64,000 nt of DNA from Longimicrobiales bacterium (GCA_965203485.1 OZ241892.1:2976001-3040000), one strand, 5' to 3'. Positions 24,001-36,688 are shown, counted from the stretch's first letter. The notes: generated by a model from the sequence alone, not told the origin. Numbers and translations are program-made.

Positions 24001-27000
24001 CCGAGCGCCGTTCACCTTGTGCGCCGCGCTGTTCGCGATCGCGTTCGCGCCCAGGCCCAGGCTCGCCGCCGTCGCCCCGTCCCGGGCGTCGGCGATCGCC
24101 CCGCCGTTCAGCGCCAGCGCGCTCGCGCCGATGCTGAGCCCGTCCGCGTCGATGTCCGCAGCCGCCACCGCGTAGGCGAACGCCAGCGTCTTCGTCCCCG
24201 TCCCGCTGGCGTAGTCCGCCTGGCGCGTCGCCGAGCCGATCGTCAGCGCCAGCTGCGGCGTTCCCGTCACCGCGACGGGCCGGGCAAAGGTCACCTCGAC
24301 TTCGATCTGCTCGCCCAGGACGTAGGTGCTGTCGCCGACCGGACTGCTCGTGATCGTCACGCCGCTCGCCGCCGCCGCCGTGAACGTCGCGCCCGCCACC
24401 TTGTGGCCCGAGCTGTTCGAGACCGCAAGAGAGCCCAGTCCCAGCACGGCGTCCGTCGTCCCGCCCGCCTCGTCGATCGTCCCGCCGTTCAGTCCCAGCG
24501 CGCTCGCGCCGATGCTCAGCCCGTCCGCGTCCGCGTCGCCGCTCGCCACCACGTAGCGGAAGACCAGCGACGCCGTCCCCGTCCCGCTGGCGTAATCCGC
24601 CTGCCGCGTCGCCGAGCCGATCGCCAGCGCCAGCTGCGGCGTCCCCGTCACGTCCACCGCCTTGTTGAACGTCACCGTCACGGCAATCGTGTCGCCCCGC
24701 TCGAACGTGTCGCCCACCACCGGCGACCCCACGGCCACGCCCGTCACCGTCGGCGGACCCCGCGTCCCGTCCACCTTGTGGGCCGCGGCGGCGGTGATTG
24801 CGTTCGCGCCCAGGCCCAGGCCGGCCGCCGTCGCCCCGTCCCGGGCGTCGGCGATCGCCCCGCCGTTCAGCCCCAGCGCGCTCGCGCCGATCCCGAGCCC
24901 GTCGCTGTCGGCGTCCGCGGCCACCACGACGTAGGCAAACGACAGCGTGTCCGTACCCGTGCCGGCAGCGTAGCCGGCCTGGCGCGTGGCCGCGCCGATC
25001 GTCAGCGCCAGCTGCGGCGTCCCCGTCACGCTCACGCGACGGCTGAACGCCACCTTCACCTCGATCCGCTCGTTCAGGCCGTAGGTGCTGTCGCTTGCCG
25101 GGCTGCTCGCGATCGCCACGCCGGTCACCGCCGCAGCCGTGAACGTCGCGCCCGCCACCTTGTGGCCCGAGCTGTTCGACACCGCGTGAGAACCCAGCCC
25201 GAGCGCCGCGTCCGTCGTCCCGCCCGCCTCGTCGATCGTCCCGCCGTTCAGCCCCAGCGCGCTCGCGCCGATGCTCAGCCCGTCCGCGTCCGCGTCGCCG
25301 CTCGCCACCACGTAGCGGAAGACCAGCGACGCCGTCCCCGTCCCGCTGGCGTAACCCGCCTGCCGCGTCGCCGCGCCGATCGCCAGCGCCAGCTGCGGCG
25401 TCCCCGTCACGTCCACCGCCTTGTGGAACGTCACCGTCACGGCAATCGTGTCGCCCCGCTCGAAGATGGCGCCCACCACCGGCGACCCCACGGCCACGCC
25501 CGTCACCGTCGGCGGACCCCGCGTCCCGTCCACCTTGTGGGCCGCCGCGGCGGCGATTGCGTTCGCGCCCAACCCCAGGCCGGCCGCCGTCGTCCCGTCC
25601 CGGGCGTCGGCAATCGCCCCGCCGTTCAGCCCCAGCGCGCTCGCGCCGATCCCCAGCCCGTCGCTGTCGGCGTCCGCGGCCACCACGACGTAGGCGAACG
25701 ACAGCGTGTCCGTGCCCGTGCCCGAAGCGTACTCCGCCTGGCGCGTCGCCGCGCCGATCGCCAGCGCCAGCTGCGGCGTCCCCGTCACGCTCACGCGACG
25801 ACTGAACGCCACCTTCACTTCGATCCGCTCGTTCAGGCCGTAGGTGCTGTCGCTTGCCGGGCTGCTCGCGATTGCCACGCCGCTCACCGCCGCCGCCGTG
25901 AACGTGGCGCCCGCCACCTTGTGGCCCGAGCTGTTCGACACCGCCTGCGCGCCCAGCCCCAGAAGCGCGTCCGTCGTGCCGCCCGCCACGTCGATCGTCC
26001 CGCCGTTCAGCGCCAGCGCGCCGACGCCGATGCTCAGCCCGTCCGCGTCCGCGTCGCCGCTCGCCACCACGTAGCGGAAGACCAGCGACGCCGTCCCCGT
26101 CCCGCTGGCGTAGCCCGCCTGCCGCGTCGCCGAGCCGATCGCCAGCGCCAGCTGCGGCGTCCCCGTCACGTCCACCGCCTTGTTGAACGTCACCGTCACC
26201 GCAACGGTGTCGCCCCGCTCGAAGGTGTCGCCCACCACCGGCGACCCCACGGCCACGCCCGTCACCCCCGGCGGCCCCCGAGCGCCGTTCACCTTGTGCG
26301 CCGCGCTGTTCGCGATCGCGTTCGCGCCCAGGCCCAGGCTCGCCGCCGTCGCCCCGTCCCGGGCGTCGGCGACCGCCCCGCCGTTCAGCGCCAGCGCGCT
26401 CGCGCCGATGCTGAGCCCGTCCGCGTCGATGTCCGCAACCGCCACCGCGTAGGCGAACGCCAGCGTCTTCGTCCCCGTCCCGCTGGCGTAGTCCGCCTGG
26501 CGCGTCGCCGAGCCGATCGTCAGCGCCAGCTGCGGCGTTCCCGTCACCGCGACGGGCCGGGCAAAGGTCACCTCGACTTCGATCTGCTCGCCCAGGACGT
26601 AGGTGCTGTCGCCGGCCGGACTGCTCGTGATCGTCACGCCGCTCGCCGCCGCCGCCGTGAACGTCGCGCCCGCCACCTTGTGGCCCGAGCTGTTCGAGAC
26701 CGCAAGAGAGCCCAGTCCCAGCACGGCGTCCGTCGTCCCGCCCGCCTCGTCGATCGTCCCGCCGTTCAGTCCCAGCGCGCTCGCGCCGATGCTCAGCCCG
26801 TCCGCGTCCGCGTCGCCGCTCGCCACCACGTAGCGGAAGACCAGCGACGCCGTCCCCGTCCCGCTGGCGTAATCCGCCTGCCGCGTCGCCGAGCCGATCG
26901 CCAGCGCCAGCTGCGGCGTCCCCGTCACGTCCACCGCCTTGTTGAACGTCAGCGTCGCCGCAATCGTGTCGCCCCGCTCGAAGGTGTCGCCCACCACCGG

Positions 27001-30000
27001 CGACCCGACGACCACCCCCGTCACCCGCGGCGGGCTCCCGGGGCCGTCCACCTTGTGGGCAGCGGCGTCCGCGATCGCGTGCGTGCCCAGCCCCAGCGCC
27101 GCGTTCGTCCCGGCGCCGCTCCGTATCGTCCCGCCGTTCAGCGACAGCGCGCTCGCGCCCACGCTGATCCCGGAGCTGTCCGCGTCCGTCGCCCGCACCA
27201 CGTAGTCGAACGTCAGCGTCTTCGTCCCGCTCCCGCCGGCGTACGACGCCTGCGCTGTGGCGGCCCCCACCCCCAGCGCCAGCTGCGGGCTACCCGTCAC
27301 CGTCACCGGAATCTGGAAGCCGACCTGCACCGAGATCGTGTCGTCCGCCGTGTACGTGCTGTCGGCGCCGGCGTCGCTGGCGATCACCACCGCAAGCACG
27401 GCCGGAACCGTCGTAGTCCCGTCCACCTTGTGGGCGGCGGCGTTCGCAACCGCATTCGCGCCCAGTCCCAGCGCGGCGTTCGTGCCCGTGCCGCTCCGGA
27501 TCGTCCCGCCGTTCAGCGACAGCGCGCCCGCGGCCACGCTGATCCCGGCGCTGTCCACGTCCGTCGCCCGCACCGTGTAGCGGAACGTCAGCGTCTTCGT
27601 CCCGCTCCCGCCGGCGTACGACGCCTGCGCCGTGCCGGTCCCGATTCCCAGCGCCAGCTGCGGGCTCCCCGTCACCGTCACCGGGATCTGGAAGACGATC
27701 CGCACCGCGATCCCGTCGCCGGCGCCGTACGTGCTGTCGCTTCCCGCGTCGCTGAAGATCGTTGCCGAGACCACGGCCGGCACCGTCGCCGTCGCGCCGT
27801 TCACCTTCCCGGCGGCGACGCCGGCAAGGGCGTGGCTGCCCAAGCTCAGCGTCGCCGCGGCCCCGAACGAGCTCTGCAACGTGCCGCCGGCCAGCGACAG
27901 GGCGCTGTCCGCGACGGCGAATCCGTCGGCGTCCACGTCCGTCGCCCGAACGACGTAGCCGAACGTCAAGGTCTCCGTCCGGCTACCGCTCAGGTACGCC
28001 GCCAGCCGCGTCGAGTCTCCGATCGTCAGCGCCAGCTCGGGCACGCCCGTCACGACCACGGGAATGCTGAACTCGACCGCCACCTCGATCCGCTCGCCGC
28101 CCCCGTAGGTGTCGCCGCTGGCCGGCGAACTCGCGACCCTCGTCCCCGTCACCGACGGCGGCGTCGCCCTGGAGCCGTCCACCTTGTGGCCGCTGGAGTT
28201 CGTGATCGCGTGGGTCCTTCCCAGCTCCAGCCTGGCGTTGGTTCCAGCCGCGCTCCGGATCGTCCCGCCGTTCAGCGCCAACGCGCTGGGCCCCACGCTG
28301 ACGCCGTCCGCGTCCACGTCGGCGGACTGCACCACGTAGCTGAACGCCAGCGACTTGCTCCCGCTCCCTCCCGCGTACGACGCCTGCACCGTGGCGGCCC
28401 CGATCCCCAGCGCCAGCTGCGGGCTCCCCGCCACCGTCACCGGGATCTGGAAGACGATCCGCACCGCGATCAGCTCGCCGGCGCCGTACGTGTCCCCCGA
28501 AGCCGGGCTGGTGTCGAACCGCGCCGAGGCGACCTCGGGCAGCGTCACGCTCCCGTCGATCTGGTCGCTCAGCAGCTCGACGTTCAGCCTCAGCGCCGCA
28601 TCGGCCCCGCCGGCGCTCCGGATCGTCCCGCCGTTCAGGGTCAACGCCGCGCGCTCGACGGTGAACCCGTCCGCGTCCCGGTCCGTCGCCCGCACGGTGT
28701 AGCCGAAGGTCAGCGTCTTCGTCCCGCTCCCGCCGGCGTAGGCCGCCTGCACCGTGTCGGCGTCCAGCGACAGCGCCAGCTGCGGCGTCCCGGTCACCGT
28801 CACGGCCAAGTCGAACCCGACCTGCACCGAGATCGTCTCGCCCGCCCCGTACGACCCGCCGATCGCCGGCTGGCTGGCGGCCGCCACGGACGAGACGGTA
28901 GGCGCCGTCGTCGTGCCGTTCACCTTGTGGCCGGCCGCGTTCGCAATGGCGTGGCCGGCCAAGTTCAGCGTCGCGTTCGCCGCCGTGGCGCTCCGGATCG
29001 TCCCGCCGTTCAGGGTCAGGGCGCTCGCGCCGACGCCGATCCCGTCGGCGTCCACGTCGGTGGCGCCCACTACGTAGTCGAACGTCAGCGTCTTTGTCTG
29101 GCTGCCGGTCGAATAGGACGCCTGCCCGGCACCGCTTCCAATGGTCACCGCCAGCTGCGGCGTGCCCGTCACGGTCACCGGCATGTTGAACCCGACGGCC
29201 ACGGAGATCGTCTCGGTGGCCCCGTAGGTGTCGCCGTCGTCCGGAGCGCTGCTGATCTCCACCGAGGTCGCGGCCGGAGTGGCGTTGTTGGAGCCCAACA
29301 CCTTCTGGCCGGCGGCGTTCGTGATCGCGTGGGTGCCCAAGCCCAGGACCGCGCCGGCGCCGGCGGCGCTCCGGATCGTCCCGCCGTTCAGCGCCAAGGC
29401 GTCCGCCAAGATGCTGATGCCGTCCGCATCCAAGTCCGCCCGCTGCACGACGTAGCCGAAGCGCAGCACCTGACCCGTCGTCTCGAGCAACGCCGCTTGG
29501 CGCGTCTGGCGCCCGATGCCGATCGCCAGCTGCGGAGCGCCGGCAACCCGAATCGGGATCGCCGCCGCAAACTCCACCTCCACCTCGATCCGCTCCCCGC
29601 CTCCGTAGCTGTCCGCGGACGCCACCGGCCGACTCGCGATCCGAACGGCGCTCACGAACGGGTTCGGGGCGACGGCGCCGTTCACCTTGTGGCCGCTCGC
29701 GTCGGAGAGCGCATGACTGCCCAGCCCCAGCGTCGCCGCCGCCCCAGCGTCGCTCCGGATCGTGCCGCCGTTGAGCGTCAGCGCGCTCGCGCCGATCCCG
29801 ATCCCGTTGGCGTCCCGGTCGGCCGCCTGCACGGCGTACTCGAAGTGGAGCGTCCGGCCCGCCGTCCGCAGGTACGTGGCCTGGCGCGTCTGCGTCCCGA
29901 TCGTCAGCGCCAGCTGCGGGCTGCCGGTCACGGTGATCGGCAACCTGAAGGTGACGCTCGCCCCGATCTTCTCGCCCGCTCCGTACGTGTCGCCGCTGAC

Positions 30001-33000
30001 GGGCGTGCTGGTGACCGCGGCCCCCGTCACGGCGGGCGCGGTGGCGCTGCTGCCGGTCACCTTGTGGGTCGCGGCGGCGGTGATCGCATGGCTGCCCAAG
30101 TTCAGGCTCGCGTTGGTGCCGACCGTGCTCCGAATCGTCCCTCCGTTCAGCGTCAGGGCGCCCGCGCCGATCCCGATCCCGTCGGCGTCCGAGTCCGAAG
30201 AGTGCACCGTGTAGCGGAAGTGCAGCGACTGCCCCGCCGTTCGGGTCAGCGTCGCCTGCCGGGTCGAGTCCCCGATCGTCAGCGCCAACCGGGGCGCGCC
30301 CGTGACGCGGATCGGCACCAGGGCGCCGAACCGCACCTCGGCCTCGATCTGCTCGCCCGCTCCGTAGACGTCGCCGCTGACCGGCGTGCTGGTGATCCGA
30401 AGCAGGTCCACGTTCGGGACGGTGCCCGTGCTCCCGTCCACCTTGTGGCTCGCGTTGGCCGCGTAGGCGTAGGCCCCCAAGCCGAGCAGCGCCGCCCTGC
30501 TGTTGACGCCGGTGATCGTCCCTCCGTTCAGCTTCAGGGCGCCCGCGGCGATCCCGATTCCGTCGGCGTCCACGTCGGGCGTCTCCACCGTGTAGCGGAA
30601 GTGGATCGTACTGGGCCGAGAGGGCAGGCGTACGCCAAATGCTTGCTTGACGCTGTCCCCGATCGTCAGCTCCAGGAGCGGTAGGCCGGTCACGGCGACC
30701 GAGTCGCTGAAGTCCACTTCGACCCGAACGACCTCTCCCGCCCCGTAGGTGTTGCCGGTGCGCGGCCCGCTGACGAAGCGCACGCCGCTGACGGTCGTGA
30801 CGGCGACCGGCGTCGCCCTGACTTCGGAGCTCGATGAGCCGGTCCCGTTGGCGTTCGCCGCTCGCACCTGGAACTTGTGCGCGGCGCCGTTCGTCAGCGA
30901 CCCCACCGTGTAGCTGGTCGTCGTCGCGCTGCTTGCCGGGATGTCGGTCCAGCCCGAGTACGAACCCGCCGCCGGCCCGTGCCGGACCTGGTAGCCGGTG
31001 ATCGTGGTGTCCTGCGGATCGGTCCAGCTCAAGGTCGCTTGCGCATTGCCCGGAGTCGCGGTCAATCCCGTGGGCGCCGCGGGAACCGAGCCCCCAACCG
31101 TGGCGGAAGCGTTGACCTTGTGGCTGGAGGCGTTGGCGATCTGATTGCTGCCGATCGCCGGGGAGATCAGGCTGAAGGTTGGGCGGTAGACGTAGAGCTC
31201 TCTGGTGTACGTAAACGTTTGGGTGTTCCAGGTGCCGAAGTTCAATGCATTCGGCCCGATGCTGATGCCGTCCGGGTCGTGGTCGTCGCTCACAACGGTG
31301 TAAGAGTATTCGAAATGGTTTTGAGACGTCGTGAGGCCTCCGGTCTCGCCCCGGCTCGTGCGCGTCCTGCTGCCGATTTGCAAGTTCAGTATGGGTCCCC
31401 ACGAGTCCGAATCGATGTCGCTTCCGTCGGTCACGTGGAACCTCACTCGTATTACTTCTCCAGTGCTGTAGCTGTCCTCGCTCTGCGGTGTGCTGACAAT
31501 CTCGACCCGGTTGATCCGGGCCCTGAACAGGCCGATCGTCGTGAAGGCCGCGTCTCCCGCCGTGGTACCGACCATGGCTCGCAGCTCGATCCGGTAGGGC
31601 CGGCCTCCGTTCGATACCCTGACTTCGCCGGAGGTCGTACTCGCACTGCTGGAAGGAATGTTCGTCCACCCGGTGAAAGCGCCGCCGTCCGACGGCCGGT
31701 AGCGATACTGATACCCCGTGATCAAGCTGTTGCCGGGGTTGGTCCAGTCGAGCCTGGCCTGGGTGGCGCTCAAAGGCGTGGCGATCAGCCCGCTGGGCGC
31801 CGCCGCAACCTTGCGTCCGTCGACCGCGTGGCCCGAGGCGTCGGAAAGGGCGTGGTCGCCCAGGCCCAGCGTGGCGTTGGTTGCCGTGGCGCTCCGGATC
31901 GTGCCCCCGTTGAGGGCCAGCGCGGTCGCTCCTACGCTGACCCCGTCGCGGTCGGAGTCCGCCGCCGCAACCGTGTATCGGAACGTCAGGGTCTTCGTCC
32001 CGCTTCCGCTCGAGTACGCGGCCTGCCGCGTGGCGCTCCCGATCGTCAACGCCAACCGAGGCGTCCCTGTGACCGTCACCGCGATGCTGAAGCCGACCTG
32101 CACGGAGATCACGGCGCCCCGCGTGTACGTGCCGCCCATTGGCGTGCTGGCAAAGGTCACGGACGCCACCGTCGGCGCCGTCGCGCTCCCGTTCACCTTG
32201 TGCGCCGCCGAGTTCGCGATCGCGTGCGTGCCCAGGGCCAGCGCGGCGTTTGCTCCCCCCGCGTTGCGGATCGTGCCGCCGTTGAGCCCCAGCGCGCCGG
32301 CCGCAACGCTGATCCCGTCGTTGTCCCGGTCGCCGGCCACCGTTTCGTAGCTGAAGGCGAGGGTCTTGGCGCCGCTTCCGCTCGCGTAGGCCGCGTACCG
32401 GGTTGCGCTCCCCACGGTCAGCGCCAGCCGGGGGGCGCCCGTCACCGTCACTGCCAGATTGAACGCGACCTGCACCGAGATCGTCTCTCCCGCCCCGTAG
32501 GAGCTGTCGCTCGCCGGGCTGCTCGCGATCGCGACGGAGGCGACCGCCGGCACCGTCCTGGTCCCGTTCACCTTGTGGGCGGGCACGTTGGAGAACGCGT
32601 GGCTTCCCAGCCCCAGCGTCGCGGCGGCGCCCGTCCCGCTCCGGATGCTTCCGCCGTTCAGCTCCAGCGCATTCGCGCCCACGCTGATCCCGTCCGCGTC
32701 CAAGTCCGTCGCAAGCGTCTCGTAGCTGAACGTCAAGGCGCTCGTTCCGTTTCCGCTCGCGTAGGCCGCGTGACGGGTGGCGCTCCCGATCGTCAGGGCC
32801 AGCCGGGGCGTGCCCGTGACCGTCACGGCGAACCCGAACGACACCCGCACCGAGATCGTCTCGGCCGCCGCGTAGGTGTCCCCGCTGTCCGGCCTGCTCG
32901 TGACGAGAACGCCGCTCACCGCAGGCATCGTCCTGCTCCCGTCCACCTTGTGGCCCGAGGCGGCGCTGATCGCGTGCGTGCCCAGGGCCAGCGTGGCGTT

Positions 33001-35556
33001 CTGGGCCGACTCGCTGACGATCGACCCGCCGCTGAGCGTCAGCGCGCCGGACCCGACGCTGATCCCGTCGGGGTCCCGGTCCGTCGCCCGCGCAACGTAG
33101 CTGAACGTCAGCGTGCTGGTCCCGGTTCCGCTGGCGTACTCGGCGTGCCGGGTCCTCTCGCCAATTCCCAGCGCCACGCGGGGCGTGCCCGTCACGTTCA
33201 CCGGCGTGGTGAAGCCGATCCGCACCGAGATCGTGTCGCCCGCTCCGTAGGTGTCCCCGCTGGCCGGCGCGCTCGCAATCGACGCCGCGCGCACCGCGGG
33301 AACCGTCGCCGTGCCGCCGTTCACCTTGTGGCCCGAGGCGTTCGCGACCGCGTGCGCGCCCAGCGCCAAGGTGGCGTTCGCCCCGGCCGCGCTCCGGATC
33401 GTGCCGGAGTTGAGCGCCATGGCGAACACCGAGACGCCGTCCGCGTCCCTGTCCGCCGACCGCACGACGTAGCGGAAGATCAGCTTCTTGCCGCCGCTCC
33501 CGCTCTGATATGCGGCCGTCTTGGCCAGCGAACCGACCGTCAAGGAGACGGTGGGGCTCCCAGAGACCGTCACCGGCGCCGTGAACCCGACTTCCACGCG
33601 AACCGCCTCGCCGGCGCCGTAGGTGTCTCCGCTCGCCGGCGCGCCGACGACCGCCACCGAGCTCACGGTGGGCGTGGTGGCCGTCGTCCCGACCACCCGG
33701 TGACCCGACGCGTTGGAGATGGCGTGGCTTCCCAGGTCCAGGTTCGCGGCGGCGCCGGCCGTGCTCCGAATCGTCCCGCCGTTCAGTTGCAGGGCCGTCG
33801 TCCTGATGCTGATCCCGTCGGGGTCGAGATCGCGGCTGGTCACCACGTACCCGAAATGCAGCGACTGGCCGGACGTTCTGCGCAACGTCGCGAACGCGGG
33901 CCCGCCGCCGAAAGCGATCTGCAACCGGGGAGCGCCGACGACCCGGATCGGAACCGCGGCGGCGAACTCGACCTCCACCTCGATCAGCTCGCCGCCCCCG
34001 TACACTTGGGCGCTCAACGAAGGAGAGCTGGTGATGCGCACGCCGCTCACGCTCGGCACGGTCGCCGAGCCGCCGTTCACCTTGTGGCTCGCGTTGGCCG
34101 AGAAGGCGGCGGCTCCCAGGCCGAGCCCGGCGTTCCGCGTTCCGCCGACCTCCTTGATCGTCCCGCCGTTGAGCGCGAGCGCGTTGGCGGCGACGCCGAT
34201 CCCGTCCACGTCCGAGTCCCCCGCCTGCACGACGTACCGAAAGCGAATGCTGTTCGACCCGGCGCTCTCGTAGGCGGCGTGGCGCACGGCGCTGCCGACC
34301 GTCAGCCCCAGCCGAGGCGCGCCGGTCAACGCGATCGGCGCGCTGAACTGCACCTCCAGTTGGACGACCTCGCCGGCGCCGTAGGCGTCGCCCGCAAGAG
34401 GCGTGCCGACGAAGCGCACTGCCGACACCAACGGAAGGGTGGTCGGCGTCGCCCTGGCCTCGCTCGTCGAGCCGGCCCCGGCGCCGTTTCTGGCCCGGAG
34501 CTGGAACTTGTACTCGCTGTCGTTCGTCAGCGGACGGACCACGTGGCGGGTGGTGGTGGCGTCGCTGCCCGCAATCGTCGTCCAGCTCGACGGGTAGCTG
34601 GCCGTGTCCAGGGCGTGGCGAACTTCGTAGCTGCCGATGGTGGAGTTCCCGGGGTCGGTCCACGTCAGCGTCGCTTGGCCCGGCGCCGCCGTCGCGGCCA
34701 GCCCGGCGGGGGCGGCCGGGGCGGCCAGCGCGCCGTTGACCTTGTGCCCGGCGGCGTTGACGATGCGGTGCCGGCCGATCGTCATGGTGGGGTGGCCGCC
34801 CCAGGCCCAGAAGAGATCGAGGTCGCTCAGCGCGTTGGGACCGATGCTGATCCCGTCGCTGTCCACATCCGCCGTTTGGACGGTGTAGCTGAACGTATGC
34901 GTGGACTGATTACGAGTGGTGTAGTTCCATGTCGCCCGTCGGCTGGCGCCGCCGATCGAGATGTCCAGGTACGGATGGGCGGCACGAGCGTAGCGGACGC
35001 TGTTATTCCACCTGACCGCCACGACAATCGTCTCGCCGGCGGCGTACGTGTCGCCCGTCGGCGAACTCGTGATCGAAACGCCGCTGATCGGCACGTTGGC
35101 CGTACTGACTCTCGTCCTGCTCGCCCCGCCGCAGGCAGCGCCGGCGCAGGCCCTGATTTCGAATTGGTACCGCCTGGGGCTGCTCAGGCCTCCGACCGTG
35201 GCCGAAGTCGTGCTGCTGTCGCTGCTCGCGACGTCCGTCCATTGATTGGGGAGATTTTGTCTGAACCCGGCGTAGCGGTACTGGTACTTGGTGATCGCCG
35301 CGTTGCCCGGGTTGTCCCAGCCCAGATCGACCGACGAGGTGGTGGCTTGGTGGGCCCAGAACCCCGTCGGCGCCGCAGGCGCCTGGGCGGCGACGGGGCC
35401 GGCCGGGGCAACCATGGCTGCAACTCCGGCAAACGCCACGAACCATGCTGGAGCTAGACGGCGGCAACGGCTCACAGCGCGACCGGACGGCTCAAGTCGC
35501 TCGCACGCCGCACTCCATCCCCCCCCCCCCCCCCCCCCCCGTTCATGCGGCCGCAC
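1..35556 (-). CDS. Giant secreted repeat protein / putative adhesin (>11,800 aa, 3' end beyond the window): Sec signal peptide, 6 FN3 domains, ~88 Ig-like repeats of ~126 aa
   Basis: Hand translation of the minus frame whose codons align with + frame 1 gives ...RLAPAWFVAFAGVAAMVAPAGPVAA|QAPAAPTGFWAHQATTSSVDLGWDNPGNAAITKYQ (signal peptide then FN3), followed by repeats of the type VTGTPQLAL.IG...RQA.YASG.GT..L.F.Y.V...DADADG.SIGASALALNGGTI...HKV(D/N/A)G. The ORF track lists no minus-strand ORF in this frame anywhere in 1-35.5 kb, and the antisense shadows (292, 3331, 15895, 16471, 21568, 30877) share one register, consistent with no stop or frameshift. The upstream in-frame stop is at 35578-35580. 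Candidate starts are GTG 35556 (GGAG 8 nt upstream) or GTG 35475. Confidence 0.92.
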   Translation of the reverse strand, partial: MRPHERGGGGGGGWSAACERLEPSGRAVSRCRRLAPAWFVAFAGVAAMVAPAGPVAAQAPAAPTGFWAHQATTSSVDLGWDNPGNAAITKYQYRYAGFRQNLPNQWTDVASSDSSTTSATVGGLSSPRRYQFEIRACAGAACGGASRTRVSTANVPISGVSITSSPTGDTYAAGETIVVAVRWNNSVRYARAAHPYLDISIGGASRRATWNYTTRNQSTHTFSYTVQTADVDSDGISIGPNALSDLDLFWAWGGHPTMTIGRHRIVNAAGHKVNGALAAPAAPAGLAATAAPGQATLTWTDPGNSTIGSYEVRHALDTASYPSSWTTIAGSDATTTRHVVRPLTNDSEYKFQLRARNGAGAGSTSEARATPTTLPLVSAVRFVGTPLAGDAYGAGEVVQLEVQFSAPIALTGAPRLGLTVGSAVRHAAYESAGSNSIRFRYVVQAGDSDVDGIGVAANALALNGGTIKEVGGTRNAGLGLGAAAFSANASHKVNGGSATVPSVSGVRITSSPSLSAQVYGGGELIEVEVEFAAAVPIRVVGAPRLQIAFGGGPAFATLRRTSGQSLHFGYVVTSRDLDPDGISIRTTALQLNGGTIRSTAGAAANLDLGSHAISNASGHRVVGTTATTPTVSSVAVVGAPASGDTYGAGEAVRVEVGFTAPVTVSGSPTVSLTVGSLAKTAAYQSGSGGKKLIFRYVVRSADRDADGVSVFAMALNSGTIRSAAGANATLALGAHAVANASGHKVNGGTATVPAVRAASIASAPASGDTYGAGDTISVRIGFTTPVNVTGTPRVALGIGERTRHAEYASGTGTSTLTFSYVARATDRDPDGISVGSGALTLSGGSIVSESAQNATLALGTHAISAASGHKVDGSRTMPAVSGVLVTSRPDSGDTYAAAETISVRVSFGFAVTVTGTPRLALTIGSATRHAAYASGNGTSALTFSYETLATDLDADGISVGANALELNGGSIRSGTGAAATLGLGSHAFSNVPAHKVNGTRTVPAVASVAIASSPASDSSYGAGETISVQVAFNLAVTVTGAPRLALTVGSATRYAAYASGSGAKTLAFSYETVAGDRDNDGISVAAGALGLNGGTIRNAGGANAALALGTHAIANSAAHKVNGSATAPTVASVTFASTPMGGTYTRGAVISVQVGFSIAVTVTGTPRLALTIGSATRQAAYSSGSGTKTLTFRYTVAAADSDRDGVSVGATALALNGGTIRSATATNATLGLGDHALSDASGHAVDGRKVAAAPSGLIATPLSATQARLDWTNPGNSLITGYQYRYRPSDGGAFTGWTNIPSSSASTTSGEVRVSNGGRPYRIELRAMVGTTAGDAAFTTIGLFRARINRVEIVSTPQSEDSYSTGEVIRVRFHVTDGSDIDSDSWGPILNLQIGSRTRTSRGETGGLTTSQNHFEYSYTVVSDDHDPDGISIGPNALNFGTWNTQTFTYTRELYVYRPTFSLISPAIGSNQIANASSHKVNASATVGGSVPAAPTGLTATPGNAQATLSWTDPQDTTITGYQVRHGPAAGSYSGWTDIPASSATTTSYTVGSLTNGAAHKFQVRAANANGTGSSSSEVRATPVAVTTVSGVRFVSGPRTGNTYGAGEVVRVEVDFSDSVAVTGLPLLELTIGDSVKQAFGVRLPSRPSTIHFRYTVETPDVDADGIGIAAGALKLNGGTITGVNSRAALLGLGAYAYAANASHKVDGSTGTVPNVDLLRITSTPVSGDVYGAGEQIEAEVRFGALVPIRVTGAPRLALTIGDSTRQATLTRTAGQSLHFRYTVHSSDSDADGIGIGAGALTLNGGTIRSTVGTNASLNLGSHAITAAATHKVTGSSATAPAVTGAAVTSTPVSGDTYGAGEKIGASVTFRLPITVTGSPQLALTIGTQTRQATYLRTAGRTLHFEYAVQAADRDANGIGIGASALTLNGGTIRSDAGAAATLGLGSHALSDASGHKVNGAVAPNPFVSAVRIASRPVASADSYGGGERIEVEVEFAAAIPIRVAGAPQLAIGIGRQTRQAALLETTGQVLRFGYVVQRADLDADGISILADALALNGGTIRSAAGAGAVLGLGTHAITNAAGQKVLGSNNATPAATSVEISSAPDDGDTYGATETISVAVGFNMPVTVTGTPQLAVTIGSGAGQASYSTGSQTKTLTFDYVVGATDVDADGIGVGASALTLNGGTIRSATAANATLNLAGHAIANAAGHKVNGTTTAPTVSSVAAASQPAIGGSYGAGETISVQVGFDLAVTVTGTPQLALSLDADTVQAAYAGGSGTKTLTFGYTVRATDRDADGFTVERAALTLNGGTIRSAGGADAALRLNVELLSDQIDGSVTLPEVASARFDTSPASGDTYGAGELIAVRIVFQIPVTVAGSPQLALGIGAATVQASYAGGSGSKSLAFSYVVQSADVDADGVSVGPSALALNGGTIRSAAGTNARLELGRTHAITNSSGHKVDGSRATPPSVTGTRVASSPASGDTYGGGERIEVAVEFSIPVVVTGVPELALTIGDSTRLAAYLSGSRTETLTFGYVVRATDVDADGFAVADSALSLAGGTLQSSFGAAATLSLGSHALAGVAAGKVNGATATVPAVVSATIFSDAGSDSTYGAGDGIAVRIVFQIPVTVTGSPQLALGIGTGTAQASYAGGSGTKTLTFRYTVRATDVDSAGISVAAGALSLNGGTIRSGTGTNAALGLGANAVANAAAHKVDGTTTVPAVLAVVIASDAGADSTYTADDTISVQVGFQIPVTVTGSPQLALGVGAATAQASYAGGSGTKTLTFDYVVRATDADSSGISVGASALSLNGGTIRSGAGTNAALGLGTHAIADAAAHKVDGPGSPPRVTGVVVGSPVVGDTFERGDTIAATLTFNKAVDVTGTPQLALAIGSATRQADYASGTGTASLVFRYVVASGDADADGLSIGASALGLNGGTIDEAGGTTDAVLGLGSLAVSNSSGHKVAGATFTAAAASGVTITSSPAGDSTYVLGEQIEVEVTFARPVAVTGTPQLALTIGSATRQADYASGTGTKTLAFAYAVAVADIDADGLSIGASALALNGGAVADARDGATAASLGLGANAIANSAAHKVNGARGPPGVTGVAVGSPVVGDTFERGDTVAVTVTFNKAVDVTGTPQLALAIGSATRQAGYASGTGTASLVFRYVVASGDADADGLSIGVGALALNGGTIDVAGGTTDALLGLGAQAVSNSSGHKVAGATFTAAAVSGVAIASSPASDSTYGLNERIEVKVAFSRRVSVTGTPQLALAIGAATRQAEYASGTGTDTLSFAYVVVAADADSDGLGIGASALGLNGGAIADARDGTTAAGLGLGANAIAAAAAHKVDGTRGPPTVTGVAVGSPVVGAIFERGDTIAVTVTFHKAVDVTGTPQLALAIGAATRQAGYASGTGTASLVFRYVVASGDADADGLSIGASALGLNGGTIDEAGGTTDAALGLGSHAVSNSSGHKVAGATFTAAAVTGVAIASSPASDSTYGLNERIEVKVAFSRRVSVTGTPQLALTIGAATRQAGYAAGTGTDTLSFAYVVVAADADSDGLGIGASALGLNGGAIADARDGATAAGLGLGANAITAAAAHKVDGTRGPPTVTGVAVGSPVVGDTFERGDTIAVTVTFNKAVDVTGTPQLALAIGSATRQADYASGTGTASLVFRYVVASGDADADGLSIGASALGLNGGTIDEAGGTTDAVLGLGSLAVSNSSGHKVAGATFTAAAASGVTITSSPVGDSTYVLGEQIEVEVTFARPVAVTGTPQLALTIGSATRQADYASGTGTKTLAFAYAVAAADIDADGLSIGASALALNGGAIADARDGATAASLGLGANAIANSAAHKVNGARGPPGVTGVAVGSPVVGDTFERGDTVAVTVTFNKAVDVTGTPQLALAIGSATRQAGYASGTGTASLVFRYVVASGDADADGLSIGAGALGLNGGTIDVAGGTTDALLGLGAQAVSNSSGHKVAGATFTAAAVSGVEIASSPASDSTYGLNERIEVKVAFSRRVSVTGTPQLALAIGAATRQAEYASGTGTDTLSFAYVVVAADADSDGLGIGASALGLNGGAIADARDGTTAAGLGLGANAIAAAAAHKVDGTRGPPTVTGVAVGSPVVGDTFERGDTIAVTVTFHKAVDVTGTPQLALAIGAATRQAGYASGTGTASLVFRYVVASGDADADGLSIGASALGLNGGTIDEAGGTTDAALGLGSHAVSNSSGHKVAGATFTAAAVTGVSITSSPASDSTYGAGDRIEVEVTFARSVAVTGTPQLALTIGAATRQAGYAAGTGTKTLAFRYAVAATDSDSDGISIGAGALGLNGGGIADARDGATAADLGLGANAVSNSAAHKVNGSLATPAAPSGLTATPTASGAVQLRWTDPSDTTITKYQVRHRNQSGSGSFTAWTDVASSGASTTSHTVSSLTDQVDYRFELRAVAGSRAGRASFALARPSDIRVTGVRITSSPTSDDTYGPGQTIEVTVSFSAFRPRVTGSPVLKIGVGTATRDAAYSGTGLTSARFQYTVTAADVDSDGISIGPNALDFTAGWVNTRFSIASPTIGRYAIANSASHKVDGLLGTPAAPTGFSASPGNAQVTLSWTDPSDTTLTGYQFRHAIATEPFSRWTDISGSDASTTSHVVPSLSNGTEYKFQVRAQNSVGAGHASEEARATPTSAPVVAAVRFVGVPVSGDTYGAGEVVRVDVEFSAVLTVTGAPRLALTVGAAARQAAMERVRERAIRFAYTVRSGDVDADGIGVAAAALTLGGGTILGPGGASAQLSLGARAFTANAAHKVNGATATAPFVDFVQITSSPSSGDTYGGGERIDVHVRFGAAVPVTVAGSPRLALTVGAQTRQATLSRASGQSLHFGYVVQAADADADGISIGASALTLNGATIRSGAGAAAGLGLGAHAVADASGHKVSGGTATAPAVSAVSITSAPASGDTYGAGEKITARVSFQLPIVVTGAPRLALAVGSQTRQAEFARLSGQSLYFDYTALSSDADADGISIAANAISLNGGTILSTIGTAAALELGAHAVTNASGHKVSGSTATTPEATSVSVTSAPVSGDTYGAGERIEVRVGFNLEVRATGSPQLALGVGAATRQAALLGGDGDGLTFGYVVQSADVDADGISVGAGALGLNSGTIASTAGAAAALGLGSHAIANASAHKVNGASATTPAVVSAAVTSAPASGDTYYAGEAIAVAVGFDVPVAVTGAPQLALTIGAQTRQAAYVSGTNTKTLTFRYTVVLADSDSNGVAVGASALGLNGGTIRSGAGTAAGLGLGAHAIADAAGHKVDGTSTSPTVNAASIASTPTSGDSYGAGETIAVEIGFNFPVTVTGTPRAALTIGAATRHAGYASGSGNTSLRFEYVVDATDADADGISLAADALELNGGTIQSSLGTDAALGLGSYAVADASAHKVNGAATVPAVTGAAIVSDAGNDSTYAAGDDVSVEVAFQIPVTVTGTPQLALTIGASAGQAAYAGGTGTKTLTFSYTVRATDVDGNGIAIAANSLTLNGGALQSGAGTNAALSLGTFAIADAAAHKVDGTSTVPVVTSASVSSSPAGGDTYGAGETISVRVGFSIPVTVTGAPQLAVAVGSATRQVAYASGSGTTALVFDYVTLATDRDDDGISVGAGALTLNGGTIRSGSGTNATLALGSHAIANASGHKVNGAATAPLVSSMSISSAPASGDTYGGGEKITVSVVFQIPVTVTGTPQLALTVGNATRQAGYASGSGTAALAFDYVVQTADSDSNGIGVGPTALTLNGGTIRSAAGTNANLSLFLNAFSNSQDHKVDGSSATTPTVRAVTIRSDAGADSTYFAHDAIVVEVGFNVPVTATGAPQLALAIGAQTRQAAYAAGSGTTALTFRYVVTAADSDSDGIAVGASALALNGGTIRSSVGAAATLGLGSNAIAAAAAHKVDGSQGPPGVADVAVGSPVVGDAFERYDTISVTVTFDQAVDVTGTPQLALTIGTATKQASYASGTGTTALVFRYVVASGDVDADGLSIGAGALALNGGTIDEAGGTTDAALGLGAHAVSNSSGHKVAGATFTTASVASVAITSSPPGNDSTYGLGDVIEVQVTYTRPVVVSGTHLLKLAVNIGTQTPYAAYASGTGTKTLTFRYAVQASDSDSDGIGLPARALTLSGATISDARDGTTATSNGLGTHVITNAAAHKVDGSQGAAGVTGLAISSPPVGDAFERGDTIVVTVTFNKAVDVTGTPQLALTIGAATKQASYASGTGTSALVFRYLVASGDADADGISIGATALALNGGTIDVAGETTDAFLGLGSRAVSNSSGHKVAGGTFTAAAVSGVSITSSPSSDSTYGFGEQIEVQVAFNRRVSVTGTPQLALTIGTRTRQASYASGAGTTTLTFRYAVGAGDADSDGIGIGASALALNGGTIADARDGSTAAGLGLGTNAIAAAAAHKVDSARGPPGVAGLAVASPVVGDTFERGDTVWVTVTFNRAVDVTGTPRIFLTIGTQTPTASYASGTGTTALRFRYVVASGDADADGLSIAASALHLAGGTIDASGDTTDAALGLGSHAVSNSSGHKVAGGTFTAAAVSGVSITSSPAADSTYGLGEQIEVQATFNRRVSVTGTPQLALTIGAATRQASYTSGTGTAALTFRYAVAVADADSNGIGIGASALALNGGAIADARDGTTAAGLGLGVHAIANAAAHKVDASRGAAGVTGVSIGDPVVGDTFERDDTVAVTVTFNKAVDVTGAPQLVLTIGAVTRQASYASGTGTASLEFRYVVVQADADADGLSIGASALALNGGTIRVAGETTDALLGLGSHAVSNSAGHKVAGGTLTGPAPSGVAIASAPSSDSTYGRTERIEVEVTFARPVVVTGTPQLALTIGTQTRQASYASGSGTKALAFRYTVQGTDRDSTGIGVGASALALNGGTIADARDGTTAAALGLGAHAVSDAAAHKVDGSLGTPGVIGVSFADDPYNSEYERGDAIDVRVSFSRAVAVTGAPRLALGIGSQTRQAAYASGTGTDTLVFRYVVVQSDRDVDGISIGASALGLNGGTIRAAGTTMDAVLGLGSHAIANSSGHQVNGSLFTGLAVEDVHVRSVPASDSTYKLGERIELEVLFQRAVVVTGTPQLALGIGSATRQASYAGGSGTKRLRFRYAVAAADVDADGISLSGSALALNGGVIDDARAGGTAAGLGTSASVFSNDAAHKVNGGVGAPSVSALGIGAPVVGDVFERGDTIVATVEFNAAVAVTGTPQLALGIGSATRQAGYASGTGTASLVFRYVVVAADADADGLSIGASALALNGGTIRRTGTTTNALLGLGGHAVANSAGHKVAGGTFTASSVSGVAIASVPGSDGTYVRTERIEVEVSFARPVTVTGTPQLALGIGSQTRQAEYASGSGTKTLAFRYAVQAADSDSDGISIGASALALNGGSIADARDGATAAGLGLGSHAIANAAAHKVNGARGPPGVSGLSIGSPVVGDTFERGDTIAVTVTFTDSVDVTGTPRLALGIGSATRQASYASGTGTASLVFRYVVASGDADADGLSIGASALALNGGTIDVAGGTTDALLGLGSHAVSNSTGHKVAGGTFTAAAVSAVTIASAPASDSTYAETEEIAVEVTFNRRVTVTGTPQLALAIDTLTRQAEYAGGTGTATLTFAYQVAAADADSTGISIGASALGLNGGTIADARDGTTAASLGLGSNAIADAAAHKVDGSLPPPVTRATGAPEARGLAIGAPAVGDVFERGETIEVELVFHRAVDVTGTPQLALTIGAATRQASYASGTGTDTLVFRYVVASGDADADGISIGASALALNGGTIRASGEALDAVLDLGAYAVANSGGHKVAGGTFTTPAVSAVTISSTPASASTYQLGERIEVKVAFGRPVAVTGAPELALTIGSRTRQASWESATSVADTLVFGYAIRPADADTDGLSIGASALALNGGTIADVRAGAAAASLGLGSHAIADAAAHKVDGSLGPPGVTHLSVTAPLSAQTFERGDTIFASVRFNKAVDVGGTPQLALGIGSATRQAAYASGTGATELEFRYVVVQSDADADGLSIAASALGLNGGTIDVAGGTTDALLSLEHVAISNASGFRVAGGTFTAPAVTWAGISSAPSDGSTYELGEQIGVTVTFNRNVTVTGAPELALGIGAQTRQAAYVAAASGNRELEFRYTVAAGDADADGLSVGASALALNGGTIVDPRDGTTAAALGLGASAIANSAGHAVDGSRGPPGVSGVSIAAPPAGDVFERGDTIAATVVFNKAVDVGGAPRLALAIGAQTRQAGYASGSGTASLEFRYVVVQADADADGLSIAAGALALNGGTIDVAGGTTDAVLGLGGHAIANSTNHKVAGGTFTAASVSGVTITSSPASGDTYGLGERIEVEASFVRVVSVTGTPQLALGIGTDTVQADYGSGTGTKTLAFSYAVAASDADGDGLSIAAGALALNGGTIVDARDGSTAASLGLGSSAIANAASHKVDGAQGPPGVTALSVASPVVGDVFERGDTIAATVTFNKAVDVGGTPRLALTIGSATRQASYASGTGTASLVFRYVVASGDADADGLSIAAGALALNGGTIDVAGGTTDALLGLGPSAVTNSAGHKVAGGTFTAASVSGVAITSAPASDSTYGRTERIEVEVTFNRRVAVTGTPQLALTVGAQTRQASYASGTGTATLAFGYTVAAADADSDGIGIAAGALALNGGAIADARDGATAAALGLGSNAIANAAAHKVDGSRGPPGVTGLSISAPAVGDVFERGETIEVELVFNRSVDVGGTPRLALAIGSATRQASYAAGTGTDTLVFRYVVASGDADADGLSIAAGALALNGGTIKVAGGTLDAALGLGGSAVTNSGGHKVAGGTFTAASVSGVTVSSTPASASTYQLGERIEVKVAFGRPVAVTGTPRLALAIGTRTRQASWEAASSTADTLVFGYAVRPADADADGLSIGASALALNGGTIADARDASEAAALGLGSNAVTNDASHKVNGSLGPPGVVGLMVAAPLVGAAFERGDTVVATVTFNKAVDATGTPQLALSIGTQTRQAGYASGTGTTALVFRYVVVAADADADGLSIAASALALNGGTIDVAGGTTDALLSLERHAIGNDGALRVSGATFTAASASGVTISSSPASDSTYGRTERIEVEVTFDRNVAVTGTPQLALTIGDSTRQASYASGTGTKTLAFGYVVVAADSDANGLSIGPAALALNGGTIADARDASEAAGLGLGSSAIANAAAHKVDGNQGPPGVTGLVVAPPPAGDVFERGDAIAATVTFNRAVAVTGTPQLALAIGTQTRQASYASGSGTTSLVFQYTVVTADADADGLSIGTSALALNGGTIRLSGGTLDATLGLGGHAVTNSGGHKVAGGTFTAASVSGVTISSAPSSGDTYGLGEEIEVEVTFVRPVNVTGTPQLALGVGTDTVQADYGSGTGTKTLAFSYAVAASDADSDGLSIAEGALALNGGTIVDARDGATAASLGLGSSAVANAASHKVDGAQGPPGVTALSVASPVVGDVFERGDTIAATVTFNKAVDVGGTPRLALTIGSATRQASYASGTGTASLVFRYVVASGDADADGLSIAAGALALNGGTIDVAGGTTDALLGLGPSAVTNSAGHKVAGGTFTAASVSGVAITSAPASDSTYGRTERIEVEVTFNRRVAVTGTPQLALTVGAQTRQASYASGTGTATLAFGYTVAAADADSDGIGIAAGALALNGGAIADARDGATAAALGLGSNAIANAAAHKVDGSRGPPGVTGLSISAPAVGDVFERGETIEVELVFNRSVDVGGTPRLALAIGSATRQASYAAGTGTDTLVFRYVVASGDADADGLSIAAGALALNGGTIKVAGGTLDAALGLGGSAVTNSGGHKVAGGTFTAASVSGVTVSSTPASASTYQLGERIEVKVAFGRPVAVTGTPRLALGIGTRTRQASWEAASSTADTLVFGYAVRPADADADGLSIGASALALNGGTIADARDASEAAALGLGSNAVTNDASHKVNGSLGPPGVVGLTVAAPLVGAAFERGDTVVATVTFNKAVDATGTPQLALSIGTQTRQAGYASGTGTTALVFRYVVVAADADADGLSIAASALALNGGTIDVAGGTTDALLSLERHAIGNDGALRVSGATFTAASVSGVSISSAPASDSTYGRTERIEVEVTFDRNVAVTGTPQLALAIGTQTRQADYASGTGTKTLAFGYAVVAADADANGISIGASALALNGGTIADARDASEAAGLGLGSSAIANAAAHKVDGNQGPPGVTGLVVAPPPAGDVFERGDAIAATVTFNRAVAVTGTPQLALAIGTQTRQASYASGSGTTSLVFQYTVVTADADADGLSIGTSALALNGGTIRLSGGTLDATLGLGGHAVTNSGGHKVAGGTFTAASVSGVTISSAPSSGDTYGLGEEIEVEVTFVRPVNVTGTPQLALTVGAATRQAGHASGGGTKTLTFGYEVVAGDADSDGVSVGASALALNGGTINDARDGSTAASLGLGSSAIANAAPHKVDGAQGPPGVTGLLIGAPQVGDTFERGETIEVKVAFNKAVAVTGTPQLQLRFASGSKQADYASGTGTDTLVFRYVVAAADADADGLGIGASDLRLNGGTIRRSGTATDAVLGLGSHAVIRSTGHKVAGGTFTASAASGVAITSAPSSDSTYGRTEVIEAEVSFTRPVAVTGAPQLALGVGSQTRQAAYASGSGTTALAFRYVVAAADADTDGISVAASALALNGGTINDARGGTTAAGLGLGSSAISNAAAHKVDGSRGPPGVTALSIGSPAVGDVFERGETIEVELVFNRAVDVGGAPQLALAIGSATRQASYASGTGTDTLAFRYVVASGDADSDGISIAAGALSLSGGTIRVAGGTLDATLGLGGHAVTNSAGHKVAGGTFTTPAVTAVAVSSAPASASTYQLGESVEVKLAFSRPVAVTGTPRLALTIGSATRHADYDSASSSADTLVFGYAIRPADADADGLSIAAGALALNGGTIADARPGATAASLGLGSHAITNAAAHKVNGGLGPPGVTGLAVASPPAGAVFERGDTIVATVRFNKAVDVTGTPQLALGIGTQTRQAAYASGTGTAALVFRYVVATADADADGLSVGASALALNGGTIDVAGGTTDALLSLERHAIGNDGALRVSGATFTASSVSGVSVTSSPASDSTYGRTERIEVEVTFDRAVAVTGTPQLALTIGAQTRQASYASGTGTKTLAFGYVVVAADADANGLSIGPAALALNGGAIDDARDASEAAGLGLGSHAISNAVAHKVNGNLGPPGVTGVTLGSPPVGTTFERGDTIVAALAFNRSVDVTGAPQLALGIGSATKQAVYASGSGTSSLEFRYVVVTADVDADGLSVATSALGLNGGTVRLAGGTLDATLGLGTHAISNSAGHKVAGGTFTASGVTGVAVASSPASGATYGLGERIEVRVTFARAVAVTGTPQLALGIGAATRQADYAGGTGTPQLAFGYVVVAGDADSDGLSIGASALALNGGGIADGRDGSTAAALGLGSSAVADAAGHRVDATRGPPGVMGVTIGSPQVGDTFERGDTVEVEVEFNKPVAVTGAPQLALGIGAATKQAGYASGSGTAALAFRYVVVSADADADGLSVAAGALALNGGTIKVSGGTADALLGLGAHAVANSAGHKVAGGTFTASSPSAASVTSAPASGDTYGLGERIEVRVTFARPVVVTGAPQLALGIGSATKQAGYAGGSGTRALVFGYVVASADADADGISVGASALSLNGGAIADARDGATAAGLGLGSSAIANAGAHKVDGSVEGAPAVAGARLASAPSSGGSYGLGEEIRVAVRFDRAVAVTGTPELALGIGAATRQAGYASGSGTSELEFAYVVQAADADRDGISVGAGALS
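4316..10393. repeat. Near-identical tandem duplication, period 3039 bp (8 Ig-like units), with more diverged copies on both sides
   Basis: Shadow ORFs recur at +3039 (4685/7724, 5090/8129, 5471/8510, 5777/8816, 6257/9296, 6545/9584, 6926/9965; also 2051/5090 and 3218/6257). DNA at 4321 matches 7360. Confidence 0.9.
22680..27010. repeat. Near-identical tandem duplication, period 2277 bp (6 Ig-like units)
   Basis: Shadow ORFs recur at +2277 (23144/25421, 23567/25844, 23903/26180, 24326/26603, 24662/26939). DNA at 22681 matches 24958. Confidence 0.88.
35519..35540 (-). repeat. Homopolymer G22 (C22 on +) at the 5' end of the giant gene; candidate slipped-strand switch
   Basis: 22 consecutive C on +; the minus strand reads GTGCGGCCGCATGAAC-G22-ATGGAGT. 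Confidence 0.85.
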
Positions 35557-35560
35557 TTCG

Positions 35561-36445
35561 TCAGCTCCGCTTCGCCATCACGTACGGCGAGCGCTGCACG
35601 GTCGGCATCACGATCATCCGCTGCACGTTGACGCGCGGCGGAGCGTTCAGCACGTAGCACACTGCGTCGGCCACGTCCTCGGGTTGCAGAGCGTCCACGT
35701 GTTCGTAGGTCTGCCGGGCGCGGCCGGCGTCGCCGCGAAACCGCACGAGCGAGAACTCCGTCTCCACCAAGCCGGGATCCACGCTCGACATGCGCACCCG
35801 CGTGCCGACCAAGTCCAGGTTGGCCGCGTCGGTCAGCGCGCGCACCGCGAACTTCGTGGCCGCGTACACGTTGCCCTTCGGGTAGACTAGGTGGCCCGCA
35901 ATGCTGCCGACGTTCACGACGTGCCCGGCATCGCGCTCGACCATTCCCGGCAACAGCGCCCGCGTCACGTTCAGCAACCCCTTGACGTTGGTGTCGATCA
36001 TCTCGTCCCAGTCGGCCGCGCTGCCCTCGTGGAGGCTGTGCAGTCCGCGGGCCAGCCCGGCGTTGTTGACGAGGACGTCCGGCGCGATGCCTTCTTCGGC
36101 CAGCCAGTCCCCAAACGTAGCGACGCGGTCCCGGTCGCGTACGTCGAGCACGTACGTGCGCGAGCCGTTCGAAGAGCCGTCCCCGCCCGAGCCGGCTTCT
36201 CCGGTTGCATCGTTTCTGCGCGCGGGTTGCCCGCCCTCGCAGTCGGTGCCACGCCCGTTCGCCGCGCCCGGCCACCCGCTCCGCCGCCCTTCCCCCAGCC
36301 GCACAGCCAGCGCATCCAACCGGTCCTTCCGGCGCCCGAGCGCAATCACGCGGGCGCCGCGTCCGGCCAATGCCAGCGCGCAAGCCTCCCCAATCCCGGC
36401 GGTTGCCCCCGTCACGACGGCCGTCTTGCCGCGAATTCTGTTCAT
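35561..36445 (-). CDS. Short-chain dehydrogenase/reductase (YdfG-like), with ~40-aa low-complexity insertion
   Basis: TGATAGIG Rossmann motif, NNAG, catalytic YAATK, DPGLVETEFS typical of the YdfG subfamily. Confidence 0.9.
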   Translation of the reverse strand: MNRIRGKTAVVTGATAGIGEACALALAGRGARVIALGRRKDRLDALAVRLGEGRRSGWPGAANGRGTDCEGGQPARRNDATGEAGSGGDGSSNGSRTYVLDVRDRDRVATFGDWLAEEGIAPDVLVNNAGLARGLHSLHEGSAADWDEMIDTNVKGLLNVTRALLPGMVERDAGHVVNVGSIAGHLVYPKGNVYAATKFAVRALTDAANLDLVGTRVRMSSVDPGLVETEFSLVRFRGDAGRARQTYEHVDALQPEDVADAVCYVLNAPPRVNVQRMIVMPTVQRSPYVMAKRS

Positions 36446-36688
36446 CCGCCTCCGGCGAAGTCAGGCCATGCTTCCTACACTCTTGCTGGAGTTTCCACAA
36501 TAAGCGAAAAGGGCGAGCCCCCGCCAATGCGACCGGCGCCGGCCAGCAGGCCTGTCGCGCCAAGGACGCTCCAGGCCCGGCTTCGGAGGCTCCGGACGCG
36601 GACGAGGCGACGCCGAAGGCGCAACGGGCGACGCCGGACGCTCGTGGCTTGCTGCGGCCCTCCGTTCGACCCTACCGTTCGCTCCGTC

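Follow-up and report, generated by a model that had tools for sequence, protein, structure and literature searches.

Does the poly-G run at the start of a giant gene in the 64,000-nt window analysed here control expression by slippage, and if so, as a switch or as a dial?

Poly-G run: 22 G's, among the possible start codons of the gene for a giant predicted surface protein.

An SDR gene and accA flank the giant gene, which is an insertion between them. The sequence-only reading had noted the G22 run in the leader, with GTG 35556 in frame and ATG 35546 out of frame unless at G20 or G23, all of which was confirmed; the expected megadalton product was also borne out by an open frame encoding 1.31 MDa (13,405 residues).

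The genome of this uncultured bacterium, likely a member of the Longimicrobiales, contains 42 G/C runs of 14-30 nt but none of 12-13 nt, which rejects chance or artefact as the source of G22. The 42 long runs are located at surface and defence genes, including some within restriction-modification genes, either in frame or out of frame. The proposed check of other giant surface genes revealed such a run ahead of 9 of the 14 family members, and the closest homologue in another genus has C19 in the equivalent position. Altogether, these observations make it very likely that the G22 run represents a slippage contingency locus. Such loci are already known, including from pathogens, with Moraxella Hag and Haemophilus licA as examples.

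The assignment of G22 as ON in the sequence-only reading is insecure, because contigs break at the run in 4/4 runs, from which a length of 22 or 23 G's follows, a spread in which biology and sequencing noise are inseparable. A plain ON/OFF switch is doubtful, since the gene can be entered from every one of the three tract phases. In 17/19 related leaders, the stop of the one-base-short frame coincides precisely with a second start codon, located at the signal peptide, against a background of ~25% (a post hoc comparison), and this phase is the most frequent. As a new, post hoc lead, these findings suggest a possible third state, which would be reached by a restart of the ribosome. Of the proposed toggling or tuning, the latter is likely: driven by slippage, the run would act as a dial on the giant predicted surface protein.

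The leader of the giant gene spans less than 100 nt on the minus strand and reads GGAG (35568-35565), CTGACGAA, GTG (35556), CGG CCG CAT GAA C, G22 (35540-35519) and ATGGAGT. The stop codon TGA of the upstream short-chain dehydrogenase (SDR) gene (35563-35561) lies 4 nt ahead of GTG 35556. The sequence, this spacing and the frames are as the sequence-only reading had described them when the leader is read again. The locus comprises the following features.

1..35556, minus strand, continuing past the window: giant gene of 13,405 residues, with FN3 domains, ~125-residue repeats, cadherin domains and a C-terminal β-barrel
35561..36445, minus strand: upstream SDR gene (adh_short, E 7e-45)
35565..35568, minus strand: GGAG ribosome-binding-like site within the SDR end (16S-tail pairing -7.1 kcal/mol, top quartile)
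35554..35556, minus strand: candidate start 1a, GTG, in frame at G19/22/25
35544..35546, minus strand: candidate start 1b, ATG AAC, in frame at G20/23, with a weak ribosome site
35519..35540, minus strand: G22 homopolymer tract, at which the contigs of four sequencing runs break
35472..35546, minus strand: 24-codon leader frame from ATG 35546 at G22, whose stop (35474-35472) overlaps GTG 35475 (GTGA)
35492..35518, minus strand: 8-codon frame from ATG 35518, a possible decoy start immediately behind the tract, where poly-G mimics a strong ribosome site
35386..35475, minus strand: candidate start 2 (GTG 35475) and predicted 30-residue Sec signal peptide ending VAA/Q, with a weak ribosome site

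The tract lies between the start codon and the coding body for GTG 35556 and ATG 35546, but not for GTG 35475. At G19, G22 and G25, GTG 35556 is in frame and the frame of ATG 35546 terminates on GTG 35475; at G20 and G23, ATG 35546 is in frame. This confirms the earlier assignment, by which ATG 35546 is off frame at G22, running into the stop at 35474-35472, but reads in frame at G20 or G23. The overlap of that stop with GTG 35475, and ATG 35518, had escaped the sequence-only reading. Since the GTG 35556 frame terminates on GTG 35475 at G21 and G24, no phase is cleanly closed. Accordingly, the two states of the ON/OFF switch proposed in the sequence-only reading are doubtful. Likewise, G22 is ON as far as the frame of GTG 35556 is concerned, but is doubtful as the population state, the contigs implying 22 or 23.

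The predicted 16S-tail pairing is -7.1 kcal/mol for GTG 35556, indeed the stronger ribosome site among the two upstream starts, -2.9 for both ATG 35546 and GTG 35475, and -10.2 for ATG 35518, against a genome median of -4.3. The best predicted ribosome site in the leader is thus poly-G itself, feeding the out-of-frame ATG 35518. The context of ATG 35546 resembles the start context preceding the tracts in related leaders. The signal peptide was assigned by eye and hydropathy from its basic, hydrophobic and VAA/Q regions. Between the tract and the signal peptide, no protein conservation was detectable between the window gene and its homologue in the related genome G106 (shuffle p 0.80). Just ahead of the tract, a 15-nt stretch (35548-35562), which occurs once in the source genome, matches with one difference the L122 leader, i.e. 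the DNA preceding the G26 tract of a membrane-protein gene of the congener G002.

The stop-free frame from GTG 35556 encodes 13,405 residues with a predicted mass of 1.31 MDa, in line with the megadalton product claimed earlier, and ends 4.7 kb left of the window. Six FN3 stretches lie within the first 5,000 residues, the final 1,553 contain four cadherin stretches, and a purpose-built profile detected 93 copies of the ~125-residue repeat, which has no family name in Pfam or NCBIfam (no NCBIfam family for three pieces of the protein). This FN3 and cadherin content may point to an adhesin role; PMC10947273 discusses both domains as factors by which sponge microbes attach. The last 400 residues were modelled as a β-barrel of 18 strands (pLDDT 82.8, 32 sequences), with the autotransporter barrels of BrkA (E 2e-8), EstA, EspP, Hbp and NalP as its best fold matches. 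The last residue is Arg, and an Atlas match of 0.98 was obtained at low recognition. As the barrel model has 18 strands, compared to 12 in type Va, and the C-terminal part has no match to the Pfam autotransporter model, the protein is likely, but not cleanly, a type Va autotransporter. Among the giants, nine C-termini are that of the window gene itself or match it at 90-94% identity. No family was obtained for six of the seven flanking ORFs tried, most of them being wrong-frame ORFs.

The source genome, a single contig of 3.56 Mb with 69% GC, contains 4,631 G/C tracts of 5 nt, falling to two at 11 nt and none at 12-13 nt, followed by 42 of 14-30 nt (median 22). Given that ~0.001 tracts of 14 nt or more would be expected from the decay of the short ones, that lengths of 12-13 nt are absent and that no A/T tract of the genome exceeds 8 nt, the long tracts are not due to chance. 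The plus strand carries 24 of them as C and 18 as G. The sequence-only reading had called for a search for such tracts at other giant surface genes, and one lies at most 500 nt from the start in 9 of the 14 members of the giant-gene family, which share the C-terminal domain, compared to 13 of 2,231 other genes called by a purpose-written simple caller and at most 3 in 20,000 random placements. By contrast, none lies inside 204 kb of giant coding DNA, though 52 tracts of 6-9 nt occur there. Four of the nine family tracts, and that of locus L339, lack a usable upstream start or are themselves situated far upstream, so some tracts act otherwise; several sister tracts are found 216-332 nt upstream or right next to -35-like hexamers.

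Four of nine intragenic tracts are in frame and five out of frame. They include tracts that split or sit in four type IIG restriction-modification genes (two in frame, two out), a type III methyltransferase gene (out), SspC (out) and a PDC-M33A-like gene (in frame). Others occur at two TonB receptors, two GDSL hydrolases, an arylsulfotransferase and a sugar transferase, and several have no clear gene nearby. This over-representation and placement at surface and defence genes are those of contingency loci, and G22 exceeds the hypermutable repeat length of more than seven G listed in Table 1 of PMC4235727.

Six restriction-modification or SspC genes of the source genome with internal tracts (L063, L064, L065, L069, L070 and L076), four of them out of frame, are candidates for a switching methylome. 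The mismatch-repair genes mutS and mutL are present (3/3 congeners), so slippage should be slowed; at L074:2940-2959, a C20 tract lies one base before the -35-like hexamer of the predicted mutS promoter, and is absent at mutS in the congeners G001 and G002. It might act as a dial on mismatch repair. A C19 tract precedes the ribosomal protein S1 gene by ~90 nt (L068:3531-3549), and a C18 tract starts directly behind the stop codon of a 3,850-residue giant gene (L084:15221-15238). Tandem units of ~925 nt, 90-95% alike and with no clear gene, carry six G24-27 tracts in addition to C20 and C25 tracts (L072:4000-10400). At the L087/L088 junction (genome ~1,499,690), one giant paralogue, which lacks a long tract, is split into frames of 3,057 and 7,389 codons.

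The best named relatives of the SDR belong to Longimicrobiales/Gemmatimonadota (60-66% identity), with none above 66% in genome contigs and none above 59% in metagenome contigs; this one gene thus places the source genome in that lineage. In G001, accA directly follows the SDR gene, and in G002 another, unrelated gene does; in the source genome, the giant gene sits between SDR and accA, with a remnant similar to the SDR tail just ahead of accA. Since the SDR junctions of both congeners have neither giant gene nor tract, they offer no tract length to compare between species at precisely this site. From the stop of the giant gene to accA extends a 630-nt gap (L093:10660-11420), which ends in the remnant, similar to the SDR tail of G001, and in which no promoter-like site was found. 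The SDR itself has a ~40-residue low-complexity insert (window 36170-36290) absent from its relatives, and a minor related contig of the sequencing runs X2/X3 carries 90 different letters there. Upstream on the plus strand are a 547-residue gene (41459-43102), which resembles an IS1182-type transposase, and a 162-residue gene with short heptad-like tandem repeats (44343-44831).

The closest N-terminal homologue seen, in G106 (51% over 551 residues), carries C19 at the same place with an in-frame ATG and sits behind the stop of a different gene. The 13,298-codon giant of G002 has a ribosome site, an ATG and C26 in frame with a signal peptide, followed by a frameshift near codon 177. Equivalent genes across species carry tracts of different lengths, e.g. 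C27, C23 and C16 at the sugar transferase. Between-genome counts were restricted to single-contig genomes, which have 36 (G001), 11 (G002), 6 (G007), 2 (G011) and 0 (G039) tracts of 13 nt or more, and 38 (G106) and 21 (G168) of 15 nt or more; the wider counts (a match in 106 of 201 genomes, 140 in G040) cannot be compared where genomes are fragmented, many matches then lying at contig ends. G106 also contains about ten short repeated units in which an ATG directly precedes C16-21, with only short frames behind (L340, L351, L355, L357, L359 and L365).

Contigs of four sequencing runs (X1-X4), which represent at most two samples of one study and possibly the source itself, all break at the G22 site, and none spans it. 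Judged by these ends, the tract would measure 22 C in X1 as well as X2, and 23 C on both sides in X3 and on one side in X4, these lengths being taken from record coordinates rather than letters, with 22 or 23 and longer implied. Such breaks fit mixed tract lengths, and are equally expected from sequencing noise. Contigs enter the tract from both sides in three runs; the contigs of X4 leave 35449-35509 uncovered, a gap that carries no weight. The sponge and marine runs X5-X15 contain a fraction of 0.08-0.20 of the sequence words. Elsewhere in the source genome, a 4,565-residue giant gene has one copy with C20 and another with C18 (L081 and L082), the two showing 14 differences over 13,698 nt.

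We propose that the tract serves as a slippage-driven, translational and graded dial on the giant predicted autotransporter, with a probability of about 0.6. An ATG or GTG is found in the 20 nt before the tract in 30 of 47 5'-type tracts from five genomes, paralogues included and hence not independent, compared to 740 of 2,720 control windows, and an ATG or GTG followed by A in 17 of 47 compared to 124 of 2,720. This enrichment of starts just before the tracts supports the translational class. The tract would change length by replication slippage, and its length would reset which start reads into the giant gene, so that the amount of protein might vary from cell to cell. Ribosomes ending the SDR gene would restart at GTG 35556, which may give a high state at G19/22/25; G20/23 could be a middle state relying on the weaker ATG 35546, and G21/24 a low state, leaky only via restart at GTG 35475. 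As every phase reaches GTG 35475 or an in-frame start, a graded dial is more likely than a clean ON/OFF switch. It may hedge the production of a very costly surface protein. The earlier view of a contingency-type tract heading a giant secreted protein is supported by the genome-wide placement, the C19 homologue and the autotransporter-like barrel, and when all functional readings are taken together it is highly probable that the G22 site is a contingency locus.

A second pattern concerns start 2, the second start at the signal peptide. In 17 of the 19 usable leaders the one-base-short frame stops on start 2, and in all 19 it stops within -2..+7 of it; the other frame stops within 10 nt in none, and the background for a stop overlapping a start is 199-219 of 819 genes. 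Five of the 24 leaders examined had been dropped for lack of an upstream start, a start 2 more than 120 nt away or an intervening stop. The overlap reads GTGA in the window gene and TGATG in its G106 homologue. Counted from the nearest start, the assembled phases are 12 coupled (stopping on start 2), 5 in frame and 2 other, compared to 8/7/10 for 25 intragenic tracts with frames entered by hand (Fisher p 0.028); a systematic one-base shortening by assemblers could mimic this bias, of which the small intragenic control gives no sign.

One tentative extension, to which we give well under even odds, is a three-position dial in a family of giant autotransporters, in which a homopolymer of 13-30 nt chooses among in-frame read-through, a leader ending on a start 2 that has no ribosome site, with re-initiation, and an off frame. 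In the window gene, none of the three phases would be left without one of the two upstream starts, and its protein would be dialled but never shut; it would belong to a phasome of 42 loci with unusually long tracts in a repair-proficient lineage, with one tract at the mutS promoter.

It is improbable that the short frame of ATG 35546 encodes a leader peptide whose stop passes ribosomes to a true start at GTG 35475, with the coupled phase as the main ON state and the tract toggling the coupling. The stop overlaps and the phase excess speak for it, but the pattern is post hoc with start 2 chosen by eye, 5 of 24 leaders had been dropped, 12 of the 19 leaders belong to one paralogue family, the set amounting to about five independent lineages, and in 4 of the 12 coupled loci a more distant upstream start is in frame as well. 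Moreover, secreted proteins often have an A behind the start codon, and the true background of stop overlap may therefore exceed 25%. In the window gene, an Ala occupies the position of the homologue's start-2 Met, and GTG 35556 has the better ribosome site.

Somewhat less probable still is an action on RNA, in which the tract lies in an untranslated leader and tunes transcription, stability or ribosome loading (as a G-quadruplex or decoy ribosome site), with the start fixed at GTG 35475. That start gives a signal peptide of normal length, 30 residues, poly-G pairs best with the 16S tail, and the several sister tracts that are further upstream or next to -35-like hexamers would also fit. Yet the promoter scan found no promoter-like site in 35300-36800, scan and fold found no terminator-like site or hairpin between SDR and the giant gene, the leader has no notable fold (z 0.43), the ribosome site at GTG 35475 is weak, and starts are enriched just before such tracts. 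A functionless tract (runaway expansion) or a sequencing or assembly artefact is very unlikely and largely refuted: the exact length is unsure (22 or 23) and long G tracts at contig ends of fragmented relatives look artefactual, but 9 of 14 family heads and none of their coding DNA carry a tract, both C and G occur on the plus strand (24 and 18), contigs enter from both sides in three runs, and the same sites carry tracts in other species.

A contingency locus driven by slippage is a known kind of device, to which the G22 locus very likely adds a member. As far as the accessible parts of the cited sources describe them, several systems resemble it. In Moraxella catarrhalis Hag/MID, a large autotransporter adhesin undergoes translational phase variation through a run of guanines close to where the frame begins; it is Oca/YadA-like with ~2,000 residues, compared to 13,405 residues, G22 and several starts in the window gene (PMC1931440). 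Similarly, Haemophilus influenzae licA/lic1 has several starts in different frames upstream of a repeat, and two of three phases are expressed at different levels; however, the repeat is CAAT, the product an LPS-modifying enzyme and the third phase fully off, and no downstream restart is described in those parts (PMC2212159; PMC4235727). NalP, AusI and AutA/AutB of Neisseria meningitidis are classical autotransporters switched by coding-region poly-C or repeats right after the start (PMC5472700), and the NalP barrel is among the fold matches of the giant protein. The meningococcal passengers are far smaller, and the runs listed are of 9-12 nt (PMC4235727, Table 2) compared to 14-30 nt here, about twice as long. 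In the phasome of Campylobacter jejuni, each genome has 12-27 genes with poly-G/C, many of which serve surface structures, but in an AT-rich genome without mismatch repair, whereas the source genome has 69% GC, mutS and mutL (PMC4235727). In Streptococcus gallolyticus Pil1, a repeat within a small leader ORF acts on the surface gene behind it via a transcription terminator (PMC3894217). No terminator was found at the giant gene, and a Pil1-type attenuator was rejected as neither scan nor fold gave a terminator hairpin between the leader and the giant gene.

Long tracts of this kind break short-read assemblies at these genes and make consensus-based ON/OFF calls unreliable. In literature listings covering few subscription journals, no paper addressed phase variation in Gemmatimonadota or a coupled-restart state. 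If the three-position dial holds true, its never-shut setting would also protect the accA operon in which the giant gene landed. Repeat-driven phase variation has been described mainly from host-adapted pathogens; here, an uncultured Gemmatimonadota lineage displays its full repertoire, from giant surface proteins and surface-modifying enzymes to TonB receptors and restriction-modification.
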